Shown here: positions 2,246-40,000 of the stretch, in pieces | Position numbering within the stretch: the stretch's first letter is position 1 | Layout of the letters: each line of letters opens with the position of its first letter | NCBI GenBank assembly: GCA_000004985.1 | Contig: GG738920.1 | DNA from: Naegleria gruberi | Taxonomy: Eukaryota | Reading direction: 5' to 3' (one strand) | Length of the DNA: 64,000 nucleotides | The notes under the pieces: generated by a model | Database searches by the model: none | What the model was told of the DNA's origin: nothing | Seen by the model: the letters and a program-made list of their open reading frames with translations, nothing else | Position numbers and translations under genes: made by a program

Positions 2246-4560
2246 TTATTTGAGAATAACAACTCTAGAATTGGTATAGTCAGCAAGGTACAAGTCACCA
2301 GTCTTTTCATCAAAGAAGGAACCAACAACACGACCGAATTGATCCTTACCCAATGAACCATTGTAACTGGCAGTGAAAACACCAGAATCCAAATTGAAGA
2401 AAGTGATTCTATTGTTACCACCATCACAGACAACAACATTCTTAAGAGTTTCATCAATGGCAATACCACGTGGGTTGATAAATTCCATACTTCCTTGGCC
2501 TTCCTTTCCGTAGACTCTCAAAGATACAAATTCGTGATTATCCTTATCAATACCAATAATGTGCATTCTGTGACTGCCATATTCCGAGACAATGAGATTA
2601 TTATTGATGGACAAGTAGATACCTTCTGGTTGATTGAAGAGAATACCGTCCTTATCATCCTTCTTTGAACCAAAGACCTTGAGTGGTTTACCATCAGAGG
2701 CCTTCAAAACCTTAACACGATGATTTTCACCATCACAAACAAAGACAGTGTTACCACCAGTTTGAGCCAATTCTGGGAACATTTGATTGATCTTTCTAGA
2801 GGTACAAACGATAACACCAGCAGGTTCATTGAACAAGGAAATATCGCTACCCTTCTTCTTACCTGAGGTCCAGATTGGTTCAACCTTTTCCTTTTCGTGA
2901 GCTGTCAACAATTGCTTCAAATTGTACTTGTAGACACAGTGATTGTCACAAGTGTAAATCAAAGCATCATTATTACCTTCAAAGTTTGGTTCAATGGCCA
3001 AATATCTTGGATTCTTTGGTGTCTTGTGAGTAGCCTTGTATTCCTTAGTTTTGAGATCAAAGAATTGAATTCTATTGTTACGACTGTCAGAGACAATGAT
3101 AACTCCACAATTGTGTGAAACTTTAACATCCCATGGACCCTTGAACAAGTCATTATCACTACCTTCCTTACCAGTCTTTCCAATAACACCAGCATGTTCA
3201 AATCTCATAGAATATTGTTTGAATGGAGTTGAAGCTTCGGTGACAGTTGGAGTGCTAGAAGCAGATGTAACAGTGGCAGTTGAAGAGTTGGCAGGTTGTT
3301 CGGAAACTGGAGTAGTGGCAGGTGACTTTGAAACTGGAGTTGGAGCTTTAGTCTTTGGATCAGTTTTGATGATTTCACCCAATTGTGCAATTTCACGTTG
3401 AACATATTTGAGCATGGTTTCAACATTGGTGAGTTGAACATCGTGAACTTCTTCCAAAAGTAAATACTTGAAGAAGGTCTTCAAATCTTCGAAAGATTGA
3501 AGTGTTTGTGGAAGTTTACCTAATTTTCTATCCATCATTTCAAAGCCAGACATTTCAGCCAATTTATCAAATTCAGCAATGTAATCGACGGAAATCTTCT
3601 TTAAATCAATAACTCTATTGGTATAGGTAATTTGTTTTTGACAAATTTCATCAATATCGGCATTCAATTGATCTTGTCTATCTTGTAAAGATTGTCTTAA
3701 ACCATCGAAAATAACTTGAACTTCTTCCTTCAATCTAGTTCTTTCCTTTTCAATCAATGTACTTTCTTCTTCTAATTCATTATCATGGGTTTTATGTGAT
3801 TCTTCCCATTCTTTCAATGAATCTCTCAAATTTTGCAAAACCTTTTCCAAATTGGCACGTTCTTCTGGTTCAATCTTTGAAATCATGTTGACTTCTCCGT
3901 GACCTTCACGATGTTCTTCAATAGCACAAGCAGAACAAACCAATTTCTTACAACTTCCACAGAAAGTGTTGATAGGAATGTGGTGAATTAAACACAATGG
4001 GGCAGGACCTCCAAAAGTACCTGTTGTGTTAATTGTTGAGGCAACCATTGGACTGGCAGTTGTTGATGAGCTGATACTTTGACGTGGAGTTGGTGGCAAA
4101 TGTCCTTCATGATTGTGCAAGTGTTGTCCCAATAGAATACCACTTCCTGAGAGTGATTGTGAGGAGGCTCCAATAAAATCGATCACTTGATGGGAAGGTT
4201 CTTTCTTTCTGTGGATAGCAGCATCACGAGCACACAAGAAAAGATTACAGTCTGTGTGTAAAATAGATGAAATTTTAACACATCACACAATGATTGACAT
4301 TTCGACCCATCATCATTGACGTTCAACAATAGCCATTGAAAATCAGCAAAAAATAGAAAATATCGTTAAAATCTTGTACAAATAAATTACTACGTACCAA
4401 TACATTGACTTTTTGCTTCTTGGAAAACATCAACTTCTTCCTTACAGACAAAGCAACATGGTGGAGCTACTTGTTGAGCAGAAAGTGAAGAAATAGACGA
4501 GCTTGAATCAGAGTGGGAAAGTGTGGAAATAGCAACTGGTGGAATGGTGGTTTCACTCAT
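2246..4560 (-). CDS. RING-less TRIM-like protein: B-box1 + B-box2 + coiled coil + about 6 NHL repeats (Brat/TRIM-NHL-like), 2 exons
   Basis: Exon 1 is about 4398..4560, with ATG (MSETTIPP...) at 4558-4560. It carries CCFVCKEEVDVFQEAKSQCI, then a GTACGT...CACAG intron at about 4252..4397 (146 nt, phase 1). Exon 2 is 2246..4251 and continues DCNLFLCARDAAIHRKKEPSH, which completes a B-box1 CxxC..CxxC..C..H..H pattern. A second B-box (CGSCKKLVCSACAIEEHREGHGEV) follows, then a heptad-rich coiled coil, then NHL blades (GKEGQGSMEFINPRGIAID..., NHRVKVL, NNRIQFFD). No C3HC4 RING is found upstream. Confidence 0.65.
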
Positions 4561-23608: not shown

Positions 23609-26600
23609 ATGAAAATTCCTTCAGGAATAATTCTCCTCCTTCTACTCGGTTTTGCAGCAGCATGGTTGTTAGCAGAACATAAAGTAGAGTGCACTATCGA
23701 TCACAAAATAGTGGCAGGTGGTCTAGTCGATCCAATCACTGGTATCGATGCATCTGGTTTCAAATTCAAAAATCCTGCTTCTGCATGTGTAAATCCTAAA
23801 ACTGGTGATGTATTCTTGACTGATGCTGATACCATCAACAAACCAAGTTTAGGTTTTAATAGAATATTCAGGGTAAATAGACAAACTAACATCATTACTA
23901 CCTATGCTGGTAATGGTTACTCTTCTGTAACAAGGTAAGTTAATGAATGAGCATCATGTGATGCATACATGCATGAATGTTAATTTAACATGCTTAATCA
24001 TAATCAACACATCCAAACGTGAATTTATATAGTGGAGATGGTGAATTAGCAATTGATGCTGGCATGACTCCATCAGTTTGCACTGTGGACATGGCTGGTG
24101 ATTTGTATTTTTATGATATATCCAGTTCTGCCATTAGGGTTGTCAATGGAACAACTGGAAAGATTTCCACCTTTGCATCCGTTTCTAAACCATTTTCTCT
24201 TGCAAGTGATGATAATTTCATTTACTACTCTGCAACTTTTTCTGTTGGTAAATTCAATAAGGTTACTAAGGTTAAGACTGTTTATGATAGCAGTGTTGGT
24301 ACATCATATGTTGTGTTGGGTCTGGATGGATCATTATATTACAGTGCAACCAGTGAGAAGACCATTAAGAAGGTTGACAAACAAGGTGCAATTTCGATCA
24401 TTGCTGGTCAAACCAGTGTTGGTTGTGGAAACGGCAATAAGGATGTGTGCGGTGATGGTGGATTGGCTTCCAGTGCTCTATTTTATGTAAGTATTCACAG
24501 AGGACTAGATCCATATTTAACAACATGTATTTCCTTATTAACAATTAACAGCAACCAAGTAGTCTTCATGTACAAGAAAATGGAAACCTCGTCATTGCAG
24601 ACCAATACAGAGTAAGAATGATTTCTCCAAATGGAACCGTGTCAACTCTTGCTGGTACTGGCACTTTCAATTCTTACTTTGGTGGTGCAAACGGTGATGG
24701 CAGCTCGGCAATCACTGCTGTTCTTAAAGATGTTGGTGTTATATTTGGATACAACAATACTGTTTATATTCAAGACGCGTAAGTATTCATATTCAACTTG
24801 GTTCGTCTAATCATTTCAATAGAAGAAATCTTAGATACAGAAAGGTTGAGAATAGCATTATCAATCATGCATTTGGAACTTGTGACAAGGGAGTTGCTTT
24901 TGGAGAAGGTAACAGATTGATTAATACCAATTTGAATAGTGGTTTAGCTTCTCTTGCATTCGACTCTCAAGATAACATGTATTTGGCTTGGCAAAATATT
25001 GTTTACAAGGTCTACAATGGAATTGTTAAAAGAATTGCTGGAACTGAAATTGGTGATTATGGTACTAATGGTAATGCATTGAATGCATTACTTTCTGTTG
25101 GAAAGATTATTGTGAATTCCAACAATGATGTTATTTTCCCAGCAGTAAGTTGATACTTAATTCAATTTAACCAATTTTTGATATAGGTCAACAAAGTTAA
25201 AAAGATTGAAACCTCAACTGGTTTAGTCAGAGAATTCAATATTACTGGTCTCAATAGTCCTAAAGCAATTTGCTTGGATGCAAATGACAATTTGATCATT
25301 ATGGACACCAGTAACTGTGTCATCAAATATTTCGATGTAACAACTCAACAAGTTTCGCAACTTTCCAAGACAAATGCTGGATGCGATCCTGGAGCAAGTG
25401 GTTTTTGTAAGTTTGCACATTTTCATTGTTGATTTAATCTATATAATAGTTGTCAATTCAACATTATTTAGCTCACCTTCTGATTGTGCCGTTGATAAGA
25501 AGAATGGGGATATTTACATTTCTGAGAATAACAAGATTAGAGTTATTAGAAAATCAGATAGTAAGGTGTATACCATTGCAGGTAATGGAAACTATTGTTT
25601 GAAAACAACTTACAATACGAACAAATGTGGAGATGGAGGCTTGGCAACAAGTGCTGCTATTTCAAGTAATGGTTTGGCCCTCAATTCTGCAACTTCTGAA
25701 TTGTTCTTTTCTGGTAAGTATTTAAAATATTCTATTTCGACTAATTTCAAGATAGATCTTGCTTGGGATGGTGCTAATAATAATTATTATTCAACTATTA
25801 GAAAGGTAAATTTAACATCTGGTGTCATTTCAACTGTGGCAGGAACAGGTTCTTCACCACCAAAAACTGGTACTTACATTTATGGAGAATGGTCAGATCC
25901 ATTGGCTACTCCAATTTTAGTTTCCACAGTTTCTGTTTCAAATGGTGGAAAACTCTATTTCCCAGACGGTTCCGATCAAGGGTATATCAGAACTATTAAC
26001 TCCAATAATAGAATAGTTTCAATTACAGGTCACTATTATTCGGATTCCATTTATTACAATGGTGAAAACTTGACAGCTACCGAAAGTTATCTATGTAACC
26101 CAACAAGTATTGCCAAACATAAGAATGGCGACTTGTTCTTTGGTTTGACATGTAAAACAATTGTTCAGCAAGGTGCAGTTTGGACAACTTTTTCCAGAAT
26201 TGTAAAGTTGGATTCGAATACTGGAAGAATTAATACTATAATTGGTAATTTTAAGGAAACAACTTCTCCAGATGGATTGAGTGGATTACAAACAAGTATT
26301 AGTCCATATAGAGATGCTTCTAGCTATTTCCCATTGGGAGTTGTTGTTACTGATGCAGGTGAAGTAATTTACTCAGATTCTCAATCAAATATTATTAGAA
26401 AAGTAAGTTTCTTATAAGAATTTGTGAAATTAAGCAAATATTTAGTTGAATTTAAATGGAGTGATTGAAACTATTGTTGGAACCAATACCAGTTGTCCAA
26501 ATTCCACATACACTTGTGGAGACAATGGTGATGCCAAATTAGCAAGTAAGTTTCTTCCTAAATCTTTCCAATATTAAAAACTAATCATTCCTCACGTATT

Positions 26601-29600
26601 GGAAATATATAGATTTGAAACAACCAACTGGTCTCTTCTTGACAGAAAGTGGTGTTTTATATATTGCTGACTCTGGTAATCATAGAATTAGAAAAGTTGA
26701 AAATGGAACAATCTCAACAGTGATTGGTTCTGGATATTCTTGTTCATCTGCTGGAGCTGCTTCTTGTGATAGCACTGATCCTCTTTTGGTCAAGTTGTTG
26801 GTAAGTTATTCGACACTAGTTCGTATGATAATTTTGGTTAATAGACTCCTGCTGCTGTTTATATCACTAAATCAGGAGATGTCTATGTTGCTGATACAGG
26901 AGTAAGTTATTTGATTGATATATTTCAAAGTAATCCTATCAAATTAACTATTTAGAATAACAAAGTAAGAAAGTTGAGTAATGGAATTTTGAGCACTGTT
27001 GTTGGCACCTCGTTGGATCTTCCAACTGGTTTATTCGTCGATGAGAGCAACAATGATGTTTACATTTCTGATCGTGTAAGTTTTTCAATCTTCCTTTCAA
27101 AAATGTTTACATTTTCAATAATCTTTCAAATTATTTTAATAGACTCGTACTGTTAGAAAAGTTTCTAAAGGATTTTTATCAATCTATGCTGGTACGCTTA
27201 ACAATGCAGTATATTCAATCTCTGGAAATGTTTCTTTCTGCTATCCAACTTCAATTCTTCAAACTAATGATGGAATTCTTGTTGCTGACACTGAAAGTGG
27301 CTTGATCAGATCTGTCAAACTTTCCTGTCCAACTGGATACTATGGATTGAACTGTGAATATTACAACTGTTTTGGAATTAGCAGCTTAAACTCAAATACC
27401 TGCAATGGATTTGGTAATTGTTCAGCACCTGACGTTTGTAGTTGTGACAGCAGTCATGAAGGAAGTCAATGTGAAATTGGAAAGTGTTTTGGAATTTCAA
27501 AAAATAACTCAATGGTTTGCACTGGACATGGGTTATGTCTTTCACTTGATACTTGTTCGTGTAATGGTGATTATTACGGTGAAAAATGTAATTTACCTTA
27601 TTGTTTCTCAATCAGATCAAACGAAACTTCTGTTTGTTCTGGACAAGGCAACTGTGTTGAAAAGGATCAATGCTCATGTAGAAATAATTATTTGGGAGCA
27701 ATGTGTGAAAATGCACCATGTTTTGGAGTTTCTTACAACGCATCTAATGTTTGTTCTGGAAATGGAGAATGTGTTTCTCTCAATAACTGTACTTGCGATG
27801 AAGGTTATTATGGAGATTTATGTAATTTACCAATTTGTTTCTCTATCAAATCCAATGACTCATCAGTTTGTTCTGGACAAGGTGATTGTATTGGAAAGGA
27901 TCAATGCTCATGTAGAAATAACTATTTAGGAGCAATGTGTGAAAATGCACCATGTTTTGGAATTGTTTACAATGCAACAAATGTTTGCAGTGGACATGGA
28001 TTGTGTGTTTCAGGAAGTTGTCAATGTTCAGATAATTATTTTGGATCTAACTGTAGTGTCACCACTTGTTTTGGAACGGCCAGTAATGACAGCTCAGTAT
28101 GTAGTGGTAATGGTATTTGTTCTTCTTTTGATGAATGCAAATGCTCAACTGGATACACTGGAGTTAATTGCAATGTTTCAACTTGTTATGGATTACCTGC
28201 CACTAATGCAAGTGTATGTAGCGGACATGGATTGTGTACTTCTCCGAACCAATGTTCTTGTAATCAAGGTTGGAATGGAACTTATTGTAATGTTACTTCC
28301 TGTTTTGGTATTGTTTCTACAAGTGTTTCCAATGTTTGTAATGGACATGGTTCATGTATAGCTCCAAATGAATGTTCATGCAAACAAGGATATCTTGGTT
28401 CTTCATGTAATGTTACTTTCTGTTATGGAGTTTCTTCCAATGAGTCCAATGTTTGTTCTGGTCACGGAACTTGTGGAGATTTAAATTCTTGTTCCTGCTC
28501 TTCCGATTGGTACGGATCCAAGTGTAACATTACCACTTGTTTCGGTATTAAGGGAGACCAAAATACTGTCTGCAGTGGCCATGGCTCATGTCCATCAACC
28601 AATCAATGTAACTGTCAAGAGAATTATTATGGCACATCATGTTCTGTTCGTTGTGACTCTAATACCTGCAATGGACATGGTAACTGCTCATCAACAGGTC
28701 AGTGTCAATGTTTCTCAGATGTAGAACATGGTTTCTGGACCTCTTCTAATTGTTCGAAATGTGATTCGAATAGGTATGGTGAAAATTGTTGGGTCACTAT
28801 TGGAAATAGTTCAATGGTTACTCCAGATGGAATTGGTCTTTTATTGCAACTTGTTAATCCTAATGCAAATATTAAGAATTTGCAAGTCGATTGTAATATT
28901 TTACTTTCTTCTGAGACTATTAGAAAGTTGGATTCACCAATTTGTAGATGGACTAATTTATCAACAAGTGAATTGACCATTCAAATGGGTCTTGAAAATA
29001 GTATTCAATTAGGAGATTCTTTATATGTCAATACTAATTATTTCAACACAGCCAACTTGAAACCTTCTTACATTCCAATAACTGTCATGAAAAATTCGAA
29101 TCCAACTGTTTTACCAGAAGCTGTCATTTCCACAACTTCCAAATCTTTCAGTAATTGTGATTCAATTGTTATTCAAGGATCTGAAAGTAGAGACAAGAAT
29201 TATAGAGATTTGACTTTCGAATGGCGTTTCGTCAACTCTCCTCTTTCTCCTTCTGCCTTATCTCTCATTACGCTAACCAAACCAACACTTATTTTGGCAG
29301 ATAGTCAACCATCTGGAAATTATATTGTTGAACTCGTTGTCATTTCCAAATTTGGAGCAAGAAGTTTGCCAGTTTCTTATTCATTCAAGAAACTTTCTGC
29401 CAGTATGCCACAAATCAATGCTGAAAGCAATAGTATGGATGTATTTGTCGATAGACTTCCAATAATTGTCAAGAAATATGTTTCGTACAAGTCATGCTTG
29501 GGAGAAATTTTAAAGTCGAATGAATATACAGTGAATTGGACTCAAACCAGTGGACCAACCAATGCCAAATTCGAAACTTTACCTAACGGAGACTTGGCAA

Positions 29601-31942
29601 TTTATTCATTCCAATCTCAATTGTCCAATACTTTCACATTTGTTGCAACTTTGAATTATTCAATGGAAATTGCAAGCACAAAGGTAACAATCAATACTCA
29701 TGAACCTAATTTTGCAGTTTTGGTTTATCAAACTGATTTGAATTCAACTCATGTGACTGTCAATGTTGAAAGTGATCCAGTTGAAAGTTTGGCTCAATAC
29801 AAGGATAATATTCAGTTTACTTGGAATTGTAAGAATGTGGACGAAACTAATTGTGATTCTTCCATTTTGAATACTCTTGCTTATCACGGCAATGTTAAAT
29901 CGACCAAATTCATGTTGGCTCGTAAATCTTCATTGTCAATTCGTCTCGGATTGGATGTTACCTTATCAGGAAATAATCACAGCAATGAAATGGTTGTCAC
30001 TTTCCCTAAGGACGAAACTGTTCCAGTTGTTGAATTGGTTTCAGTTTCTCCAGCTGGTTCTCAACTCACCACTGAAGACATTTTAACCATTCAATTATTA
30101 GTTCGTGTCAGTGGTCAAATTGAAAATATCGATTCTTTAATTACAAGAAATTGGAATCTCAATGGTCAACCAATTAGTAACGATTTGGTTTTATCCCCAT
30201 CTCCATCTAAATCCAATTACATTTCTCTAGATTTATCCAAACTCAGTGCTGGTTCATCAAACACTTTGCTATTCAACGTTTCAAGTGTTTCGTCTAAGTT
30301 ATTCTCAACATTTACCTATTCCTTCTCACTTGCTCCAAATCCATTGCCATGTTCATGTTCTGTTAGTCCATCAACTGGTTTCGCTCTTGAAACTCTTTTC
30401 ACAATCAGTTGTCCTAATTGTTTGACTTCCAACACTGCTCTTCAAGTTTTATTCACAGATGTCAAGACTGGAGTCAGAGTTCCACTCATGGATGCAACTG
30501 TGTCTGAGTTGACCACTCAATTACCATATACAGGTGATGAACAACTTCCATTACATTTTGTTGTTAGAAATACCAAGACAGGAGCCAAGACTGAAACCTC
30601 AGTTTTACAATCGGCTAAAGTTCCATCCGCTATCTCATTGTCAGAAGTCAAGACAAAGAAGATGGCTTGGAATGCTTTTTATAGATCTCTCTATGCTAAT
30701 GATCCAAGAAAGGTTGTTTTCAATTATATTTCAACTGTTGTCAAAGAAATGACTAGAAGAAACTCTGTCACCAGAAGAAACTTGAAGGTAACAAACTGTT
30801 TAAATGGTGGAGTGTATAATTCATTCACCAAGATGTGTGCTTGTAAGAGTGGATTCAAGAAGATTGACTGTAGCATGACTCTTTCTGATTGGAATGCAAT
30901 TGTTTTGGATAATTACGAAACTGCCAAATCAGTCATTGAAGAATTGAATTCCAGAAATAGTTTAGAAGCCCCACAAGAATCCAAGATTGCCAGCCAAATT
31001 TCATCTCTCTATCACTTGCTGGAAACTGTCGACGAGAATAGTCCAGAATTGCTCGATCAAGTTCTTTCCATTTTCAACAATACCATTCAAGATGCCACCA
31101 AATTCTCTTACATTACAATTTCGAATTCATTGGCAAGTACAATGTCTGAAATTTTGGGATTACTTTACAAGAGTCAACTCTATAATGCTGGTAATGTGAG
31201 TGTTGAATATTTTGCAAAGATTAGAGAATTGCTCAACTCGGTTGCATCTATCAAGTACAGAAATCAATTGATTGGAAGTTCTATTGATTTTGATGCTGAT
31301 ATGTTCAAGTTGACTGGAACTAAACTCTATCCTATGGATTTATCTGGAAAGAATCTTGATACAATGATTCAACTTCCAACATTAATGACCAAATATTTGA
31401 AGAATGGAGACATGAGAAAGTCAATTAGTCCAAGAATTTTCAAGAATTCAATTATTCAATCCAAACAAACTTCTGAAATTATCAATAATCAAACAGTTGT
31501 AACATACGAAACCACTCCAGGTTACTCTCTTTCCTTAGAATTCATTAATCAAAATGTTGACATTCAAGAAAAAGTTGTTAATTATTACTTTAACCTTACT
31601 AAGACAAATATTTCTGCATACAGCAATATTAAGAACTTGGTCTCTGAAGTTGTTTGTGAAAGTGATCAACCATGTGAATTACAAACCTTAGAAACAAACT
31701 TTTATGCATGTAAATGTGCCCTTCCATCCCATGTAACAGTTAGAGAGAGAACTACGTTCACTATTGTGCCAATAGTTCCACAAAATTCTATTCCAACTCC
31801 TCAAAAATCAATTGTTCCAAAAGTTTCTCCAAAAGTTTCCAAGATTGCCACTGTTTCTGATGCTTTGCAATATTCTGGAATTAATGGATGTATTGTTGGT
31901 TTGTTAATTGTTTTATGGACCTCTGTTGCTGTCTTCTTTTAA
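23609..31942 (+). CDS. giant secreted/surface protein: signal peptide + about 10 NHL blades + about 11 EGF-like repeats + about 1100-aa Ser/Thr/Asn-rich glycosylated region + C-terminal hydrophobic anchor (12 exons, about 2570 aa)
   Basis: Exons, +/-3 nt: 23609..23934, 24033..24486, 24552..24778, 24823..25144, 25187..25406, 25450..25713, 25756..26402, 26446..26545, 26613..26800, 26845..26901, 26956..27075, 27143..31942. Introns are 42-98 nt, all GTAAGT...YAG, and all phases close. The signal peptide is MKIPSGIILLLLLGFAAAWLLA. NHL blades include CGDGGLASSA..., ADSGNHRIRKVENGTISTV and DNNVRKLSNGILSTVVG. EGF-like repeats of about 32 aa follow the pattern CFG..(10)..C.G.G.C....C.C..(8)..C. The protein ends GCIVGLLIVLWTSVAVFF, a TM or GPI signal. 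Near 23879 the ORF-track frame was used where it disagreed with the printed text by 2 nt. Confidence 0.65.
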
Positions 31943-31982: not shown

Positions 31983-34900
31983 TTATTCAAAAACTTCAGC
32001 AAATTCAGTAGCACTTCTTCCAAATATTTCAGGAGTGTACATTTCTTCTGCCTTCACACCTGGGATAACAAATGAACCGATTGAGGTAGCTCTAGCAATG
32101 TAGGTAAATTCGTGAGTGCCTTCCCATAACAATGAGCTAAATGCCTCAACTCTCTCATCTCTAATGTTGTGGTGTTCATACCAAATTGGATTAAACCACC
32201 AACACCACCAACCGTTTGATCTACTATTGGTTCCACTTCCACTTACAGTAGCAATATCTGGAGTTCCTTTCAATTCTGGATTGATTGGTTCAAGACCAGC
32301 AGGTAAAAAGTCAACTAATGCAACGTGATATCTACGACTGGTATTGGTCATGGTCAACTTGATACGAACCAATTCTCCAGCCTTAAATCTCCAAGTGTTT
32401 CTTTCTCTATCAAATGTAACATGAGAAGAATCAGTCACGTGTTCATAAGTTCTTTGAACTTCAAATCCATAATCCAATGCATCAACAAGCAAGTTCTTTG
32501 GAGCATATTCCATTCCAATTCTGTAATATAATCTTCCAGGTCCATGCTTGGAAATAGCAAGTGTCTTTTGACCATTCTCTAATAAACTCATTGGAATGCT
32601 CAATTGGTTTTCATCCTTGGATCTTCCCTTGAAAACTTGCTCTCCACAATAATCTTCACCTAGCCACATGTTGGCAACAAAATCTGGTGTCACACCTTCG
32701 AATACGTTAAAGTATGTATTAAGGGAAAGAAGGATGAAAACATTTTCTTGAGTATTTTCCCATCTACCTTTCTTTCTATGAGCCAGTAAGCCCTTGACAA
32801 TCTTTGGAATAATATAATTTTGAGGAGTAATATTAATAAGAGCTTCTAAGCAAATACCATCAGTTCTACGATTGCTGTGCAACATGACATGTTTAGTGGC
32901 CATTGCATCACCATAGCTTGTGATAAAGTTTGCTGTTTGAGCAGTTTCATTCACATGCTTATTCAAATGTTCAATGATTTGATTAACAGAAGTAGTGGCT
33001 CTCTTATTATTTGATAAATATATGGCAGTAGCCAACCAAGCTAAATGTTCAAAATTACCTGAAAGTTTGTAAGTTTGATAAAGTTTTTCAGCTAAATTCT
33101 TTGCCTCAGAATCATCTAACAATGCCAAAGCATAGTAGGCATATGCCTTGAGTGATTTGATAGTCTCCTCAGAGTAGTTCTCACAATAACTTTCAATACT
33201 TCTCAATACTGGAACCAATTTTGAGAGAGTGGATTCATTCACTGAATATCCTGCAAGCCTGGCTCTAGCAAGGGAATGACCGACGTGGCATGTAACGTAT
33301 GGACTGATACGATGATCCACTCCATTAAATGACCAGTAGCTGAATCCACCATTTGGATATTGTCTTGTTGATAATTGTCTGAGTCCTTGATTAATATTTT
33401 CATCAAGGTTTTCCTTTGTTGGAAGCTCTTGTAATTTGAAAGCAAGAAGAATATCTTTAAGAGCTAAAATTGATAATAATCTACTAGAAATTTGTTCAGA
33501 GCATGCGAAAGGATAATTGTACAAATAAAGGAAACTGTCAGTGAGTGAAGACAATGCAGTAGAGCTGGTTGAAATCTTGAGACCTCCAAATTGTGTGAAA
33601 ACATCTTGAGGAGCCTTTACAGGTTGGAACACTGAGCTATCACCATCCATTTCACCATAAGTTGCAAATGCTTCAGTTGTGGCTGGAGTAAATACTCTGA
33701 TTTCTTTTTCAACAGCATCAGAGAAGTTTACACCAGAAGTGGCGATAGAGACACCAACTTGGAATCTGGCCACACCCACCCTATCAGTAGTCATGGGGAA
33801 TCTCAATTCAGCCCTTCCTAAAGCTGGTATTCTAATCTTGAGTCCTTTCTTTGAGGTATCCAACAAGTTCAAATTGGTAAAGTTAATAGCAGCATGTACC
33901 TCCAAACTTAATTGGGTTTGATTTTGTAAAACACATGTAAATTCTGCTCTATCGCCAAAGTTCAAGAAACGAGGTAGGGATGGTCTGATTGACAATGGAA
34001 GTTGAGCAATCATAGATGATTCATGAATTCCAAAATTCCAATCTCCCTTAACAGCCACAGCTGTGATTCTGTACTTGGTAAGATTATCAGGAAGTTTAAA
34101 TTTAACAGAGGCCACTCCTTCAGAGTTTGTCTTGTTGGTTGGGCTAAAGATGGCAAGAGGATTGAAATTAGATCTCACTACAATCTTTGGTTGTTTGGAT
34201 AGTTTAGCTCCTCCTCCACCAAATCCACCTACACAACCATCACCACAACATGCACATTGGCAACAAAGGTCGTCACAACAACAGCATTCATTCATACAAT
34301 CTTCAAAACAACAATTAGCGCAAGAACTGCATGCTCTAGCAAAGCGACAACAGTTAGTAGGACTTCGCATTAACGGTAGTTCCTCTTGGAAAACAATACC
34401 ATCATAGCTCTTAACAAAAACATTATTTCTGATGGAATAAGTTTGATAATAGCTGCTGTATTCTCTAACAAATGTATCTAGAGGATTAGCAATGGTGTGG
34501 CCAGTTAATGACAATACAGCTTCATCCACAGCAATGATACAAACTTCACATCCTTCTAAAGGTTTACCAGTTATTGGATCCTTAACAATGACATCAATGC
34601 TAGTTTCGCTTCCAGGTGTCAAATATTCCCTTTCAGGCTTGGATTCAACAGATAAGGTTCTGGAAATCTTTGAAACCTTAATCATACATTCACCACTTGC
34701 AAAAGCAGGTTGTTTTGGTAAATCCTCAAGAACATTACCTATAGCATCAACCCTTGATTCGCAACCAGTAACTTCAGCACTGACGAAAATATTTGGAATA
34801 TGGTCAGAAGTAATGTCAAGTTCAAATTCAATATAGCCAGGCTCACCATCAATTTGAATAGGATGTTGGCTATGTATTCCATGAAGTCTTGTGAATAAAA

Positions 34901-37900
34901 CACCTTCACACCTTGTTTCAAAAGGAGATTGAATTAAAATCTTAGCCTTTTCTCCAATTTGATATTCAGTCTTGTCTGGAAGTAGAGTGAGTTGTTTCTT
35001 TGTAATATTCTTTCCAAGTTTTTGCTCCCTCACAGAAGCACCTGTAATGTACAAGCTTGTTGAAGAGTTATTAGTTTGGCCTGTTTCAGAATCAACAATA
35101 TCAACAGAGAAATAATAGATACCACCATTTCCAAACTTTAAAGGAACGTCAACAGCTTCCTTTCCTGAAGTGAAAACTTCATCAACAATTTCAATAGTTT
35201 CCGAAACAAATTTGTATCCCTTCTTTACCTGTACATTGGTGGTTACTTTCAATTTCATTGGAATACCAGAAACCAATTTTCCATCAATGTCAGAAACAAT
35301 TAGAGAAGCAGTTATTGGAATGTTTGGTTTGGCGAATTGTTTGCTCAACTTGATTCCACAATAATATTTACAAGGGTGAACAAGGAAGGAAGTAGATGAA
35401 GAAATGGTTTGTCTATTGATATCTTGTACAGTTGCCTCCACTGAGATGGTAACTGGTGTCTTTACCAAACGATCACTTTCATCAAAGGCAATAGCAACTT
35501 GATGCTCACCATTAACATCTGTAGTACCTTCAAAGCTTGTAACATCAAGAGCTGATCCACTTGGGAATAAATAATTTGCTACAGAGGAACCTCCAAAATT
35601 GTATGAGGATTGGTTTGGAGGAACATAACTACTACTGGTTTGTTTGATAGAATAAGAGCATTTAGCTCCTGAGATTCCTCCTCCACTATAGTAAGTAGCA
35701 TTAGTGGTACAAAGAGCAGAACCACCAACAATGTAGTTTCCAGCAGGTACTGAAGATTTAGATTTGAACTCTGGTGTTCTAAATTCTTGAACTTGGAATT
35801 GATGGAAGGCAGAGAACCCATCTAATGAGATGGAGTGACTTCCCAAGTTGGCATTATCAGGAACTTTGAATTGAATATCAAAAGTACCATCTTCACTCAG
35901 AGTTACATTACCAGAATGATACTTTTGACCTCTCGCATCCAAGACTGTGAAAGTAGAACTAGTTTTTGGTATTTCAATCTTTTCAACATTGTCAATCAAA
36001 TTGAAGTTTCTTACATAACCCTTGATGGAAACTGTTTCATTAGGCTTGTAAAGTCCTCTATCGTTGAACATGCAAGCAACAGTTTGTGGTTGATATGGAT
36101 TGTAATAGTGATAAATATCTGGAATGAAGCATGTATCTTGACCTTGAGTGGCAATAGCCTTCACATATGCTCCATATTGTTGTTCATGACCAATATTACG
36201 TATACAACCAATACCAGTTGATGAGTTAGGTGTATTTGGGGAATGATTGTTGAATTTGAAGGTTACATTATCCTTAATAATACTTCCATCCAACAATGAG
36301 TTAACCCAATAGTATACACTTGATGAACTTGTGTCAAAAACACAATCAACAGAAATTTTGGTTGCTTGAATCCAAGATGTGAAACCAGGTCTTTGATTCC
36401 ACTCACCCTTCCAGCTACTTTTTTCTGGCTCAACAATAACAAGCAATTGACCAATATTTTCAGATGGATACTGAAGATAGGAATGAAGATTGATTTCAGT
36501 CTCCACTGGTTCGTCAATTTCTCCCTTTGTTGAAATGACACTATCACAAACCAATTTACCAGGATATTGAATAGTTGAATAGGTGTTATGATGAAGAATA
36601 GATGAAGAATACATATTTGGTTGGACTTGATAAACACTCAAATGTACAGAATCCAAATTTACAGTAACAATTGGGTAGGTTGGAGTTGGATTCAAAGTTG
36701 GATCTAAAACAATCACACCAGTCTTGAATGCTTGGAGTGATTGACGTGCACTTTTAACAGTAAATTCTACAGTGGTGTCTGGAAGGATTTGACCCCAAAC
36801 ATCAACCAAATTCTTCAAGAAAACCTTATAAGTAGTTCTTCCTTTGATTTTACCAGAAACACTGATAGTGCATCCGTATGGATTTAATTCCATTCTTTCT
36901 ACTGGTGGTGAAACAGTTACCATACTTTCTGTTAATTTTTCCAAATCAATATTTGTTGTAAAATTCAATCCAAAAGCCTGCATTGGTAGCTCACCACCGT
37001 GTTTTCTTTCAAACTTGAAAGCTGGATAATTCTTGACTTGATTGCTTACATCCTTTTGTGTTGGTAATGGACCTTCTGACCCAGTAACTCCACTCTTGAC
37101 AACTACTTGAGAGGAGAGACCAAGTTTGTGACTAGTGGTAAACCACAAATGTCTTCCATCTGGAGCATGTTTGAGTTTTTGTTCGTAAAACGAATGAATG
37201 CTCCTATCTCTCTTCTCCAATTCATAATCTTTCAAAACTTTAACAATGTGCTCCTCAACGAGAGGATTCGAAGACTTTCCATCATGAATCAAATTGGCAC
37301 TTTGATTATCGATAGTAATAAATTTGATCACTTCACTTGGATTAATTTCTTGATCAAACTCACAATAGTAAATTGGTACTTCGTTGAGAGGATGAGCTTG
37401 TTGGTTTGGGAAAAATTGCTTTACATATAATCTTGGAGTTTCAAAACTAAATGTCAAATCTTCCTTCAAAGTTCCTCCAATTTCTGATTTGGTACCCTTC
37501 TTGACAGTAACTGTATACTTGGTAGACATGTCAAATCTGTAATTAGCTTCATAAATTAAAGTTTTTGTTCCCAACCACTTGAATTTTCCTCCCTTCTTTG
37601 GGAGTGGTGAAATTTCTACTGGAATATTATGACTTTCTACTTCTGCAACACCACTCACAGGAACCATTGGTTGAGAGAAGGTAATAGTCACAGATGGAAC
37701 TGATCTATCCAAAACACCTTCTGGTGAATAACGAAGCACACTCAAATCAGATCCTAACAACTTTGCCTCCTCTTCAATCAATTCCTTTGGTTTTTCCAAA
37801 CTTATTTCAGGTGGAAATGGAACACTATTAATCTCGGCAGTAATTGGTGCCTTCAATGATTTTTCTCTAATGAGAACAATAATTAGATAGAATTTTCCGA

Positions 37901-37913
37901 TTATTATTATCAT
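31983..37913 (-). CDS. alpha-2-macroglobulin / thioester-containing protein (A2M/TEP/CD109 family), about 1976 aa
   Basis: One uninterrupted ORF. The first in-frame ATG is at 37911-37913 (MIIIIGKFYLIIVLIREKSLKA, signal-peptide-like). The thioester-domain signature LYLYNYPFACSEQISSRLLSILAL (codons at + 33492..33503) aligns with A2M PYGCGEQNM. RQYPNGGFSYWS lies downstream, as does TCHVGHSLARARLAGY, which matches LTAFV...A. VRSNFNPLAIFSP matches the FPETWLW segment that follows the bait region. The C-terminal MG8/RBD-like region contains GRLYYRIGMEY. A poly-Cys low-complexity insert NCCRFARACSSCANCCFEDCMNECCCCDDLCCQCACCGDGCVGGFGGGG sits at about + 34205..34370, at the bait-region position. Confidence 0.75.
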   Translation of the reverse strand: MIIIIGKFYLIIVLIREKSLKAPITAEINSVPFPPEISLEKPKELIEEEAKLLGSDLSVLRYSPEGVLDRSVPSVTITFSQPMVPVSGVAEVESHNIPVEISPLPKKGGKFKWLGTKTLIYEANYRFDMSTKYTVTVKKGTKSEIGGTLKEDLTFSFETPRLYVKQFFPNQQAHPLNEVPIYYCEFDQEINPSEVIKFITIDNQSANLIHDGKSSNPLVEEHIVKVLKDYELEKRDRSIHSFYEQKLKHAPDGRHLWFTTSHKLGLSSQVVVKSGVTGSEGPLPTQKDVSNQVKNYPAFKFERKHGGELPMQAFGLNFTTNIDLEKLTESMVTVSPPVERMELNPYGCTISVSGKIKGRTTYKVFLKNLVDVWGQILPDTTVEFTVKSARQSLQAFKTGVIVLDPTLNPTPTYPIVTVNLDSVHLSVYQVQPNMYSSSILHHNTYSTIQYPGKLVCDSVISTKGEIDEPVETEINLHSYLQYPSENIGQLLVIVEPEKSSWKGEWNQRPGFTSWIQATKISVDCVFDTSSSSVYYWVNSLLDGSIIKDNVTFKFNNHSPNTPNSSTGIGCIRNIGHEQQYGAYVKAIATQGQDTCFIPDIYHYYNPYQPQTVACMFNDRGLYKPNETVSIKGYVRNFNLIDNVEKIEIPKTSSTFTVLDARGQKYHSGNVTLSEDGTFDIQFKVPDNANLGSHSISLDGFSAFHQFQVQEFRTPEFKSKSSVPAGNYIVGGSALCTTNATYYSGGGISGAKCSYSIKQTSSSYVPPNQSSYNFGGSSVANYLFPSGSALDVTSFEGTTDVNGEHQVAIAFDESDRLVKTPVTISVEATVQDINRQTISSSTSFLVHPCKYYCGIKLSKQFAKPNIPITASLIVSDIDGKLVSGIPMKLKVTTNVQVKKGYKFVSETIEIVDEVFTSGKEAVDVPLKFGNGGIYYFSVDIVDSETGQTNNSSTSLYITGASVREQKLGKNITKKQLTLLPDKTEYQIGEKAKILIQSPFETRCEGVLFTRLHGIHSQHPIQIDGEPGYIEFELDITSDHIPNIFVSAEVTGCESRVDAIGNVLEDLPKQPAFASGECMIKVSKISRTLSVESKPEREYLTPGSETSIDVIVKDPITGKPLEGCEVCIIAVDEAVLSLTGHTIANPLDTFVREYSSYYQTYSIRNNVFVKSYDGIVFQEELPLMRSPTNCCRFARACSSCANCCFEDCMNECCCCDDLCCQCACCGDGCVGGFGGGGAKLSKQPKIVVRSNFNPLAIFSPTNKTNSEGVASVKFKLPDNLTKYRITAVAVKGDWNFGIHESSMIAQLPLSIRPSLPRFLNFGDRAEFTCVLQNQTQLSLEVHAAINFTNLNLLDTSKKGLKIRIPALGRAELRFPMTTDRVGVARFQVGVSIATSGVNFSDAVEKEIRVFTPATTEAFATYGEMDGDSSVFQPVKAPQDVFTQFGGLKISTSSTALSSLTDSFLYLYNYPFACSEQISSRLLSILALKDILLAFKLQELPTKENLDENINQGLRQLSTRQYPNGGFSYWSFNGVDHRISPYVTCHVGHSLARARLAGYSVNESTLSKLVPVLRSIESYCENYSEETIKSLKAYAYYALALLDDSEAKNLAEKLYQTYKLSGNFEHLAWLATAIYLSNNKRATTSVNQIIEHLNKHVNETAQTANFITSYGDAMATKHVMLHSNRRTDGICLEALINITPQNYIIPKIVKGLLAHRKKGRWENTQENVFILLSLNTYFNVFEGVTPDFVANMWLGEDYCGEQVFKGRSKDENQLSIPMSLLENGQKTLAISKHGPGRLYYRIGMEYAPKNLLVDALDYGFEVQRTYEHVTDSSHVTFDRERNTWRFKAGELVRIKLTMTNTSRRYHVALVDFLPAGLEPINPELKGTPDIATVSGSGTNSRSNGWWCWWFNPIWYEHHNIRDERVEAFSSLLWEGTHEFTYIARATSIGSFVIPGVKAEEMYTPEIFGRSATEFAEVFE

Positions 37914-37924
37914 GATGTTAATCG

Positions 37925-38218
37925 TCACACAAAATTTAAAAACACAAACCTCATGAAGAAATCCTTTTGATCACCACCTTCTGATTTTACATTCGGAAGT
38001 CTACTCAGTAATCTCTGAGTTTCCTCCTCTGACAAACCCTCAATGGTTGCCGATAAATTGCTACTTGATTCATTGCTACAACTCTTTCCTTCCATCATGA
38101 TCAATGATCGGGTTGTATCCTCTGCAGTAGGCTCTCTAACACTCAACTTTAATGCACCACCCAATGATGCACTTTCAAGTTCATTGTCAAGCAATTGCTC
38201 GAGATCATATCTAACCAT
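37925..38218 (-). CDS. small acidic Ser-rich ORF (97 aa); either a separate gene or a 5' exon of the A2M/TEP gene
   Basis: Real ATG at 38216-38218. The ORF stops 1 nt before the tool start of the A2M ORF. ...DQKDFFM|R is followed by GTTTGT, and a TAG acceptor at about 37846 (cattag|AGAAAAATCATTGAAGGCACCA) would join it in frame to ...EKSLKAPITAEIN of the A2M ORF, giving an intron of about 85 nt. Confidence 0.25.
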   Translation of the reverse strand: MVRYDLEQLLDNELESASLGGALKLSVREPTAEDTTRSLIMMEGKSCSNESSSNLSATIEGLSEEETQRLLSRLPNVKSEGGDQKDFFMRFVFLNFV

Positions 38219-38439: not shown

Positions 38440-39861
38440 CTATTTAATTGAGATATATAGGAGTGTGGTGAATGACAGCAAGATGAAAGCTAATCCAATT
38501 AATTTTCTCAATCCTTTTGTATTATCAAGAGAAGGTGTTGACAACTTGGTATTAGTTTCGGCTAATGGAGTAGTGGATACTTCTTTGATTTCCTTTGGAT
38601 GCTCCTCTTGTTCAATAATATTATTATCCCAAATTAGAAGATCCGTTAATTGTTTCATTTCTTTGATATATTTGGCTCCTTGGTTGCCAATAATATTAAC
38701 ACTAATATCAAGTGCGTTTAATTGTGACATTTCACTTATGTATTTGGCTCCTTTCTCATCAATGTGATTTTCACTTATATCGAGCTCAGTTAATTTCTCG
38801 AGTTTGGATATATATTTGGCTCCCTCTCCCCTAATATTATTTTTCCATAAAGTGAGAATTGTTAATTGTTTCATATTACCAATGTATTTGGCTCCTTCCT
38901 CTCCAATATTATTGTCACTAACATCAAGATTAGTTAATTGTTTCATCTCAGAAATGTATTTTGCTCCATTGTCACCAATATTATTGCTACTGATATCGAT
39001 TTCAGTTAGTTTATCAAGGCCAGTTAAGAATTTGACTCCTTCTGCTGTTAATTCATTCCTCCAAATGTTAATACCAGTCAATTGTTTCATTTTTCCTAAG
39101 AATTTGGCCCCCTCATCTCCTATATTATTGTCATGAATTCGTAGATAGGTTAATTGATTCATACCACTAATATATTTGGTACTATCATCATATAGCATAT
39201 TACTACTGATATTAAGATCAGTCAATTTATCCAGTTTGGAAATGTGTTTGATACCTTCTGAGCTAATACCACAATAAAAGATACAAAGATCTAACAATTG
39301 TGTCATTTCTCCTATGAGTTTGGCTCCCTCATCTCCAATACTATTTTGCCCAATATTAAGATGGGTCAATTGCTTCATTTCAACAATGTACTTTACCCCA
39401 TCCAATCCAATATTATTTTCACTAACATTAAGATGAGTCAATTGTTTCATTCCACTAATATATTTTACTCCTTCATTTCCAATATTATTACCCAACATAT
39501 TGAGAATAGCCAAATACTGCATTTCACTTATGTATTTAGCTCCCTCCTCATCGATATTATTTCCATCAATATCCAATTGAGTTAATTGTTTCAGCAAACC
39601 AAGTTTTTTACAATCAAAAAGAGGATCACTTTGCTCTACTTGTAGAGTTGTAACACGTTCCAATAATTGGCCTTGTATTTTCTGGTAACTTTTAATGGAT
39701 AGTGAAAGTTTTGATCTTTCCGATATGACCTTGAACCACTGTTTCGAAACCAATACACAATTGAGTACTATGGACATGTTTACAAATGTTAAATCTTCGT
39801 GAAGGAAAGAAAATATTTCCTCTAGAATGTCATCAGGAAAGTAGACTTGCAGTTTATTCAT
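38440..39861 (-). CDS. F-box / leucine-rich-repeat protein (RNI-like LRRs) with a C-terminal hydrophobic tail anchor
   Basis: ATG at 39859-39861 (MNKLQVYFPDDILEEIFSFLHEDLTFVNMSIVLNCVLVSKQWFKVI, an F-box consensus LPDEIL..IF..L...CK.W). About 13 tandem 24-25-aa repeats of the form MKQLT.L.IS.NNIG..GAKYISE follow. The protein ends GLRKLIGLAFILLSFTTLLYISIK and the stop is TAA. Confidence 0.6.
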   Translation of the reverse strand: MNKLQVYFPDDILEEIFSFLHEDLTFVNMSIVLNCVLVSKQWFKVISERSKLSLSIKSYQKIQGQLLERVTTLQVEQSDPLFDCKKLGLLKQLTQLDIDGNNIDEEGAKYISEMQYLAILNMLGNNIGNEGVKYISGMKQLTHLNVSENNIGLDGVKYIVEMKQLTHLNIGQNSIGDEGAKLIGEMTQLLDLCIFYCGISSEGIKHISKLDKLTDLNISSNMLYDDSTKYISGMNQLTYLRIHDNNIGDEGAKFLGKMKQLTGINIWRNELTAEGVKFLTGLDKLTEIDISSNNIGDNGAKYISEMKQLTNLDVSDNNIGEEGAKYIGNMKQLTILTLWKNNIRGEGAKYISKLEKLTELDISENHIDEKGAKYISEMSQLNALDISVNIIGNQGAKYIKEMKQLTDLLIWDNNIIEQEEHPKEIKEVSTTPLAETNTKLSTPSLDNTKGLRKLIGLAFILLSFTTLLYISIK

Positions 39862-40000
39862 TTTTTTAATAATAAAATTAATAGTTTCTGTTAAATATAT
39901 AATCAAATTAGAATATGCACCGTTGTAATATATTGTTCTGCCAAATTCCACCAATGTTAAATAATTAATGAGTCAATTTCGATGGAATTGTTCTTAATTA

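Follow-up and report, generated by a model that had tools for sequence, protein, structure and literature searches.

A bacterial-type alpha-2-macroglobulin with a cysteine-rich bait loop and no signal peptide in Naegleria gruberi

Gene structure, family and thioester site

The 64,000-nucleotide (nt) stretch of Naegleria gruberi contig GG738920.1 analysed here (the window) carries on its minus strand a gene for a protein of the alpha-2-macroglobulin (A2M) superfamily that has the architecture of the bacterial members, lacks a signal peptide and holds a dense string of cysteines in its bait loop. The first-pass annotation of the locus had described a single-exon open reading frame (ORF) of 1976 amino acids (aa). 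The raw ORF is indeed present on the minus strand (31983..37928) and agrees at 100% identity with XP_002670008 / NAEGRDRAFT_59800 (annotated as "predicted protein", 2010 aa), but the single-exon model proved wrong, as an upstream exon and an 83-nt GT..AG intron belong to the gene. The coding sequence is join(38218..37950, 37866..31983) on the minus strand and specifies a 2050-aa protein from two exons (Table 1). Joining the exons restores motifs common to N. fowleri and bacterial homologues: the exon 1 product agrees with annotated P0001 and N. fowleri P0003 at their N-termini and also with the region that follows the signal peptide in bacterial homologues (GLxFxLSEG...LLxRLP...DFxxR). Exon 2 is collinear with bacterial homologues of about 2000 aa across 97-99% of its own length. 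The first 15 residues of the raw ORF (MIIIIGKFYLIIVLI) are non-coding read-through of the intron. The signal peptide that had been expected from this hydrophobic start is therefore an artefact of reading through the 83 nt, and the spliced N-terminus has none. The ATG at 38218 is the more likely start, with an in-frame stop 36 nt upstream of it and the end of the next gene about 220 bp further up. The database start at an internal methionine (MMEGK...) would lie 41 residues too late (38096-38218, minus strand), because the conserved ALKLSVREPT motif, which N. fowleri and the bacterial homologues have in common, is encoded upstream of it. The spliceosomal intron, the eukaryotic genes on either side (EGF/REJ and F-box-LRR) and a GC content that matches the surroundings (33-38% in the window, with no compositional break at the A2M gene) identify this as a eukaryotic nuclear gene and not as contamination. 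A pbpC neighbour is absent at the Naegleria locus.

To place the protein we used Pfam for the domain scan, phmmer for sequence searches of the PDB and Foldseek for fold searches. Matches to MG2, A2M_BRD and A2M, together with fold matches with E-values down to 2.6e-52, bear out the proposed membership of the A2M superfamily. Among solved structures, E. coli YfhM/ECAM (E ~1e-17) and then Salmonella SaA2M are closest in sequence. The C-terminal 1200 residues, modelled with AlphaFold2 from an alignment of 69 sequences at a mean predicted local distance difference test score (pLDDT) of 79.5, likewise have their best PDB fold matches in ECAM (5a42, 2.6e-52) and SaA2M (4u48, 2.7e-51), followed by human A2ML1, A2M, CD109 and C5 and by mosquito TEP1. 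The nearest non-protist relatives are proteins of Acidobacteria, Chloroflexi and Myxococcota with 35-41% identity. The protein is thus a member of the A2M superfamily with the bacterial type I (thioester-bearing) architecture. Every trait of type I bacterial A2Ms that could be tested in sequence or structure is present, and the export signal and the bacterial gene context are missing. A placement next to the animal thioester-containing proteins (TEP) and CD109, as first suggested, does not hold against the presence of bMG10 and Big_5 domains, the best PDB matches to ECAM and SaA2M and the bacterial nearest relatives. Of the animal TEP/A2M/CD109 traits, GCGEQ is replaced by CSEQ, the signal peptide is absent, and the animal A2M_recep and A2M_comp/TED profiles were not among the Pfam matches reported at E <= 0.01. 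The earlier remark that the size is nearer that of bacterial A2Ms is borne out. An NCBIfam scan matched no family to the Naegleria protein, and the N. fowleri and N. lovaniensis homologues already carry the database label "alpha-2-macroglobulin domain-containing".

The CSEQ motif is the thioester site, exactly at the coordinates claimed for it, and its surroundings align with ECAM YPYGCLEQ (Cys1187/Gln1190). The exchange of glycine for serine had been called unusual, a judgement made against the animal consensus. The literature defines the motif as CXEQ (PMC5764988), and at x the 394 relatives have S in 172 cases, A in 74, N in 39, T in 23, C in 16, V in 7, I in 2, G in 2 and L in 1. CSEQ is hence the commonest form in the clade and an ordinary one, and it is glycine that is rare, while the C, E and Q are each at least 90% conserved in the 69-sequence alignment. 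In SaA2M and ECAM the thioester is shielded and locked by the ExMY and RDDR motifs and by aromatic residues preceding the cysteine (PMC4498604). All of these have counterparts in Naegleria, namely EEMY for ExMY, RDER for RDDR, and Y-P-F-A-C where ECAM has Y1183-P-Y1185-G-C1187. The residues needed for thioester competence are intact, from which we infer that the thioester is probably live.

A second motif, YCGEQ (in WLGEDYCGEQVFKGRS), was considered as a thioester site and rejected: its place is a beta strand outside the helical domain, and ECAM has SAEQ at the aligned positions. All 10 of the Naegleria and Willaertia homologues listed carry this motif, and P0011-P0014 do not.

Table 1. Features of the A2M gene and its product; positions are those of the window.
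Feature	Position	Strand	Residues	Remarks
Exon 1	37950..38218	minus		89 codons + 2 nt; encodes MVRYDLEQLL...ALKLSVREPTAEDT...EETQRLLSRLPNVKSEGGDQKDFFM; hydrophobic signal sequence absent
Spliceosomal intron, GT..AG	37867..37949	minus		83 nt; splicing gives DFFM|REKSLK, identical to annotated P0001
Exon 2, including stop codon	31983..37866	minus		Rest of the 2050-aa protein; opens with REKSLKAPITAE
Big_5 bacterial Ig-like domain	37437..37697	minus	147-233	Pfam E 6e-8
MG2 macroglobulin domain	35823..36071	minus	689-771	Pfam E 3e-15
A2M_BRD bait-region domain	34506..34991	minus	1049-1210	Pfam E 5e-18; conserved AVDEAVLSL at its end
Bait loop	34185..34403	minus	1245-1317	73 residues; hypervariable, predicted disordered
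Cysteine string NCCRFARACSSCANCCFEDCMNECCCCDDLCCQCACCGDGC	34233..34355	minus	1261-1301	17 Cys/41 residues (41%)
Post-bait segment GFGGGGAKLSKQPKIVVRSN	34167..34226	minus	1304-1323	Placed by phmmer on ECAM RFGGDGDELKRGGKPPVN (Phe947-Asn963)
A2M domain PF00207	33894..34154	minus	1328-1414	Pfam E 1.6e-15
Helical thioester domain	32700..33545	minus	~1531-1812	Model helices 681-962, mostly pLDDT >85
Thioester motif C1545-S-E-Q1548	33492..33503	minus	1545-1548	Within YPFACSEQ
Second motif YCGEQ	32637..32651	minus	1829-1833	Beta strand after the helical thioester domain
bMG10, C-terminal MG domain	32028..32468	minus	1890-2036	Pfam E 2e-32; carries RDER and EEMY
RDER, C-terminal MG domain	32151..32162	minus		Arg invariant across 69 sequences
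EEMY, C-terminal MG domain	32037..32048	minus		E-E-M-Y invariant across 69 sequences

The bait loop and its counterparts in relatives

A cysteine-rich stretch directly before the post-bait segment had been noticed at first reading; it is present, and its limits could be refined to those in Table 1. The remainder of the protein has 24 cysteines in about 2000 residues, and at this background frequency (1.2%) the probability of finding at least 17 cysteines in 39 residues is 8e-23. Within the string the cysteines are spaced as CC (seven times), CxC (twice), CxxC (twice) and CxxxC (four times), and are encoded by 13 TGT and 4 TGC codons. The other two frames of the same strand contain stops across the stretch. 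An origin of the string from a microsatellite was rejected, as Tandem Repeats Finder finds no tandem repeat in the bait DNA.

The position of the string follows from the alignment of the post-bait segment. Once the ECAM bait is cut, Phe947-Asn963 (numbering set from Arg956, Gly958 and Asn963, which are named in PMC4498604) binds to the C-terminal MG domain and displaces the thioester domain, and the bait itself, Arg923-Leu942, is disordered and cleaved (PMC4498604). With its post-bait segment on Phe947-Asn963, the Naegleria protein has its cysteine string immediately N-terminal to it and hence on Arg923-Leu942, which supports the assignment to the bait position made at the outset. Structure prediction agrees, the only long low-confidence stretch being model residues 395-468 (aa 1245-1318), a disordered loop with pLDDT around 30 (<50) and no secondary structure. 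The description of the stretch as an insert, by contrast, could not be sustained. Measured between the conserved anchors AVDEAVLSLTG...R..VFVK and I.VRSNFNPLA, the bait has 73 aa, within the 40-94 aa (mean 63) of 99 bacterial relatives. Since baits of about this length are the rule in the family, the cysteine stretch constitutes the bait and is not an insertion: it makes a loop of ordinary length and extreme composition. The bait is also hypervariable in comparison with the 74%-identical N. gruberi paralogue P0002, with 16/64 positions identical as against 78% and 90% in the 100-residue flanks, and the P0002 bait contains no cysteine at all. We found no paper describing a cysteine-rich bait, in line with the initial impression that such a bait is new to the described A2M and TEP proteins.

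Strings of this kind recur in at least nine proteins from three Naegleria species and three divergent protist sequences, encoded in DNA of 35-64% GC. Given as cysteines per bait length, they comprise the present gene (17/73), N. fowleri P0003 (12/62), P0121 (9/62) and P0007 (13/88), N. lovaniensis P0006 (12/80) and P0272 (11/58), the EukProt Trinity transcript P0274 (15/61, ARCCRKCCCNCCNCCCKCC...), P0157 (19/134; five near-identical 6.7-kb contigs of 64% GC) and P0203 (13/66; a 435-kb contig with 48% GC at the locus, where the gene is split as expected for introns). Cysteine positions do not align among these proteins. The baits of the bacterial relatives, on the other hand, have no cysteine in 99/99 measured cases, and the whole bacterial proteins only about 5-6 (range 3-8). 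In neighbour-joining distance trees with midpoint rooting, each of the three Naegleria paralogue clades contains string-bearing members, as do the deepest branches. Since they recur across DNA of 35-64% GC without positional conservation, the cysteine string is apparently a eukaryote-specific specialisation of the bait that is kept by selection on composition rather than on sequence. P0011, P0126 and P0128 have no string. Other compositions are found as well, with Q/M-rich baits in P0002 and P0010, acidic ones in P0011 and P0126 and Ala/Pro/Gly-rich ones in bacteria. Two further ideas were discarded: a search of all three frames of the N. lovaniensis P0005 bait DNA gave no cysteine-rich alternative, so that this cysteine-free bait is not a frameshifted string, and the N. 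fowleri contig L003 from ENA, examined as RNA evidence, is genomic.

In most of the cysteine-string members (P0003, P0121, P0272/P0124, P0274, P0157 and P0203), and also in P0005, the thioester motif reads CCEQ, a form seen in only 16/394 sequences overall. The two traits may occur together through common descent or because they are functionally linked. Three copies of the gene are present in N. fowleri. N. lovaniensis has two, at least 90% identical, on one 778-kb contig, recorded as the proteins P0124 (C9374_013412), P0271 (C9374_013413) and P0272 (C9374_013396); one copy is annotated as two proteins of 891 and 1190 aa that are probably a split gene model. The pair points to a recent local duplication of a cysteine-string A2M.

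The lack of an export signal extends beyond N. gruberi. Expressed as the maximum Kyte-Doolittle hydrophobicity of a 12-residue window within the first 70 residues, the corrected N. gruberi protein reaches 1.0 and 12/12 eukaryotic homologues of the first search no more than 1.6, as compared with bacterial homologues with complete N-termini, which lie above about 1.6, mostly above 2, and carry a signal peptide, a lipobox or a transmembrane (TM) anchor. The transcript-derived ORFs P0274, P0149 and Percolomonas P0132 are without a clear signal sequence, and P0157, on a transcript-sized contig, has none, with a TAG immediately upstream of its ATG. As eukaryotic homologues and transcript-derived ORFs alike lack the signal, its loss is clade-wide and not the product of one mis-annotation. 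In the trees, the sequences without signal peptide group apart from the bacterial ones with the exception of P0240, which groups with bacteria. The gene was probably acquired from bacteria by a protist ancestor.

Elsewhere the bait holds whole foreign modules. P0012 (L001:10001-16096), a protein without signal peptide from a metagenomic contig of 146 kb that also carries eukaryotic genes (an RNA-dependent RNA polymerase of eukaryotic type, RGS and Tudor-SN), contains a complete ubiquitin at aa 1234-1305 (Pfam 7.6e-25) between A2M_BRD (aa 1026-1187) and A2M (aa 1335-1415), that is, in the bait. This ubiquitin is 76% identical to the canonical one, keeps K48 and I44, and ends in LRLRGG followed directly by the conserved post-bait segment APIEEDTSKNAIKIRSNFNPLA, so that it looks like a built-in deubiquitinase substrate. 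In Dictyostelium CPRas2 (EAL60755.1), a circularly permuted Ras GTPase (aa 2844-3013) stands between COG2373/A2M-like blocks at 2140-2771 and 3158-3933, and these blocks were attributed to transfer from bacteria by Elias & Novotny in 2008 (PMC2430557). Going by the lengths in the published coordinates, the GTPase is probably at the bait position, because the C-terminal block of about 775 aa matches the roughly 737 aa that follow the bait in Naegleria. Bait domain insertion is not confined to eukaryotes, since the bacterial protein P0222 has a CarboxypepD_reg-like domain in its bait loop (aa 1240-1315, between A2M_BRD and A2M), the one case confirmed by Pfam; in bacterial P0243 and P0103 such a domain apparently occupies the same place. 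The loop thus seems able to accommodate foreign modules and may even exploit them.

Proposed mechanism and competing explanations

In order to rationalise these features together, we favour with modest confidence a model in which the two-exon gene encodes a 2050-aa bacterial-type A2M, probably acquired from bacteria, that serves as an intracellular bait-and-thioester trap without a secretion signal. The mechanism of such a trap is taken from ECAM and SaA2M (PMC4498604), and its operation in the Naegleria protein, including triggering by a protease, would follow by analogy. In the resting state the C-terminal MG domain, with EEMY and RDER, would clamp the thioester domain and shield the Cys1545-Gln1548 thioester. 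Cutting of the 73-residue disordered bait loop would be the trigger, upon which the freed segment GFGGGGAKLSKQPKIVVRSN would compete for the C-terminal MG domain and displace the thioester domain, and the exposed thioester would couple covalently to the attacking protein. Because there is no signal peptide, the protein most likely acts inside the cell, presumably in the cytosol. There it could stand guard against proteases that leak from food vacuoles or are delivered by intracellular microbes, much as ECAM guards the periplasm, which is likewise a compartment behind a breached barrier.

As for the string itself, we tentatively prefer multiple S-acylation over a metal or redox gate, conceding that this proposal may well turn out to be mistaken. 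An S-acylated string would hold the trap on the cytosolic side of a membrane and stand in for the N-terminal lipid or TM anchor of the bacterial proteins, so that the tethered trap would guard the cytosol behind food-vacuole or plasma membranes. The proposal draws on runs of CC, CCC and CCCC with basic or hydrophobic neighbours, as in RLRCCCC, KRCCCKK and RCCRKCCCNCC, and on the fact that bacterial relatives are anchored N-terminally and the eukaryotic members lack that anchor.

Several observations weigh against parts of this picture. The strings are net acidic in P0006, P0007 and N. gruberi (12, 17 and 6 acidic residues), a charge that would favour metal binding over attachment to a membrane. 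A bait that doubles as an anchor might be hard for proteases to reach, an S-acylated anchor has no precedent in the A2M family, and the strings match no known cysteine-rich Pfam family. The string is also dispensable for the fold, because paralogues P0002 and P0005 and all three Willaertia proteins are without it. With regard to location, unconventional secretion is still compatible with a missing signal peptide. With regard to origin, a second homology search, with a profile of the deep cysteine-string sequences, returned almost only bacterial proteins and places these lineages about equally far from Naegleria and from bacteria, and the distance trees do not prove monophyly of the eukaryotic set or a single transfer or origin.

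Among the alternatives, a gate controlled by metal or redox state is possible, although we regard it as rather unlikely. Here the string would bind Zn, Cu, Cd or an Fe-S cluster, or form disulfides upon oxidative stress, the loop would fold or compact, and metal or redox state, in addition to a protease, would govern access to the bait or tension on the thioester lock. A metallothionein-like composition (22-41% Cys; CC, CxC and CxxC spacings; no His except in P0121; few aromatics) is in keeping with this, as are the strongly acidic flanks in P0006 and P0007, the flanks in N. gruberi being acidic too, and the free thiols implied by the missing signal peptide. A Pfam scan of five cysteine strings, however, found no family even at E = 10, neither metallothionein nor any other cysteine-rich match, the cysteine spacing is not conserved between orthologues, and several strings are basic and hydrophobic, unlike metallothionein. 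Furthermore, the only triggers known for A2Ms are proteolysis and direct attack on the thioester, and we know of no A2M that is triggered without one of them. That the protein is instead a secreted or surface opsonin or inhibitor akin to A2M and TEP, with an N-terminal signal peptide and a bait forming an extracellular disulfide knot, seems improbable to us. All characterised A2M and TEP proteins do act outside the cytosol, in periplasm, haemolymph or plasma, and the raw ORF does open with a hydrophobic stretch, but that stretch is the 83-nt intron, the spliced N-terminus is hydrophilic, and the in-frame stop and the roughly 220 bp to the next gene bound the gene upstream. Every eukaryotic homologue examined that has a complete N-terminus lacks a signal peptide, the transcript-derived ORFs included, and the ubiquitin in the P0012 bait and the Ras GTPase between the CPRas2 blocks are cytosolic modules. 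With the signal-peptide model found wrong, extracellular readings such as the disulfide knot are weakened.

The cysteines might also be a compositional accident of neutral drift in an unconstrained low-complexity loop, with no function of their own. The hypervariable bait, which is of low complexity in many members (Q/M-rich, acidic or Ala/Pro/Gly-rich), and the two Naegleria paralogues without a string would be expected under drift, and yet the recurrence in at least nine proteins from three Naegleria clades and three deep lineages at 35%, 48% and 64% GC, the complete lack of cysteine in 99/99 bacterial baits, the absence of a DNA repeat and the P of 8e-23 against the protein's own composition make it highly improbable. 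Least credible of all is an artefact, in which the stretch would be an unspliced intron or the gene a bacterial contaminant or a pseudogene. The obvious bacterial ancestry of the gene could raise such a suspicion, but the stretch lies in frame inside a 5.9-kb ORF while both other frames of the strand have stops, and removing it would delete most of a bait of normal length. The Trinity transcript P0274 and the transcript-sized 6.7-kb P0157 contigs retain their strings, the intron, neighbours and GC content speak for a resident gene, and all catalytic and lock residues are intact.

A bolder extension of the intracellular trap is that amoeboid protists carry thioester traps of bacterial origin inside their cells whose bait is a modular "decoy" socket that lures specific enzymes for covalent capture, which we consider doubtful. 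The lure might then conceivably be a cysteine string (possibly mimicking lipidated or metal-bound host targets), ubiquitin or, in CPRas2, the Ras-like GTPase. On this speculative footing, the enzymes lured could be effector proteases or deubiquitinases from giant viruses or from bacteria living inside the cell, or else lysosomal proteases that have leaked out. If true, this would amount to a cell-autonomous, complement-like layer of immunity with a logic comparable to the integrated decoys of plant NLR receptors.

Relation to known systems and neighbouring genes

With ECAM/YfhM and SaA2M (PDB 5a42, 4u48, 4rtd), its best sequence and fold matches, the Naegleria protein shares the MG chain, the bait-region domain, the helical CxEQ domain, the bMG10 domain with its ExMY/RDDR-like lock, and a post-bait segment that can be aligned. 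It differs in being about 400 aa longer, with an N-terminal Big_5 region, in an identity of only about 15-17% in structural alignment, in having no lipobox, signal peptide or pbpC neighbour, in its intron-bearing eukaryotic gene and in its 17-Cys bait. Closer in sequence (35-41% identity, collinear over 97-99%) are the ~2000-aa Big_5 A2Ms of Acidobacteria, Chloroflexi and Myxococcota ('Ig-like domain-containing alpha-2-macroglobulin family protein', COG2373/YfaS), which also share the N-terminal motifs after the signal peptide, CSEQ as majority motif and a bait of 40-94 aa. What sets them apart from Naegleria is the signal peptide, lipobox or TM anchor of the full-length members and the lack of any bait cysteine among their 3-8 in total. 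To our knowledge, no member of this bacterial clade has been characterised experimentally. The animal TEP, A2M and CD109 proteins and complement C3-C5 have the same overall fold as the superfamily in general (Foldseek E 1e-38 to 1e-45), the same logic of triggering by a bait or linker and a thioester, whereas they are secreted and have GCGEQ, a C-terminal A2M_recep domain where Naegleria matches bMG10, and a CUB arrangement. CPRas2, compared by published coordinates only, resembles the Naegleria protein in being amoebal and in having a foreign module between COG2373/A2M-like blocks, and differs in its 3933 aa, its large N-terminal region and a GTPase in place of the cysteine string.

Two groups of proteins outside the superfamily invite comparison with the string. 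DNAJC5/CSP and other multiply S-acylated clusters have dense cysteine runs (CC, CCC, CCCC) with basic or hydrophobic neighbours in a cytosolic protein, and the CSP string is palmitoylated and anchors the protein to membranes. The resemblance is one of composition only, as the Naegleria protein has neither a J domain nor homology to these proteins, and several Naegleria strings are acidic. Metallothioneins share a cysteine content of 22-41%, the CC, CxC and CxxC spacings and the scarcity of aromatic and His residues. In Naegleria, however, the string has no Pfam match, is a loop in a 2050-aa protein and contains Phe, Leu and Met.

A bacterial-origin A2M-like protein in an amoeba was already noted in 2008 (PMC2430557), and literature searches on Naegleria A2M, cysteine-rich baits and cytosolic A2M turned up that cpRAS paper alone; no paper was found on Naegleria A2M proteins, on A2Ms without signal peptide, or on cysteine-rich or ubiquitin baits. 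No A2M or thioester protein characterised to date acts in the cytosol, their sites being periplasm, haemolymph or plasma, and an intracellular trap, if confirmed, would extend the bait-and-thioester principle to the inside of the eukaryotic cell, in free-living and pathogenic amoebae alike. The baits described here, with cysteine strings, a full ubiquitin and, in Dictyostelium, probably a Ras GTPase, are unlike the protease-substrate loops that have been characterised, and they suggest that a bait can be adapted to sensing particular enzymes or conditions. The case would also document the transfer of an immune-type protein from a bacterium to a protist. Engineered A2M baits are already in use for protease capture (PMC9918453), and baits of the Naegleria type could inform such work.

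Around the A2M gene, the convergent neighbour at 27302-31942 (plus strand) ends 40 bp from the A2M stop codon and encodes a protein of 1546 aa, probably a surface receptor, in which numerous teneurin-like EGF repeats and a REJ domain are combined with a hydrophobic C-terminus. The ORF at 25374-26417 gives a teneurin NHL-like match. Immediately upstream on the same strand as the A2M gene, the gene at 38440-39954 (minus strand) encodes an F-box-like domain, leucine-rich repeats of the RNI type and a C-terminal hydrophobic tail.

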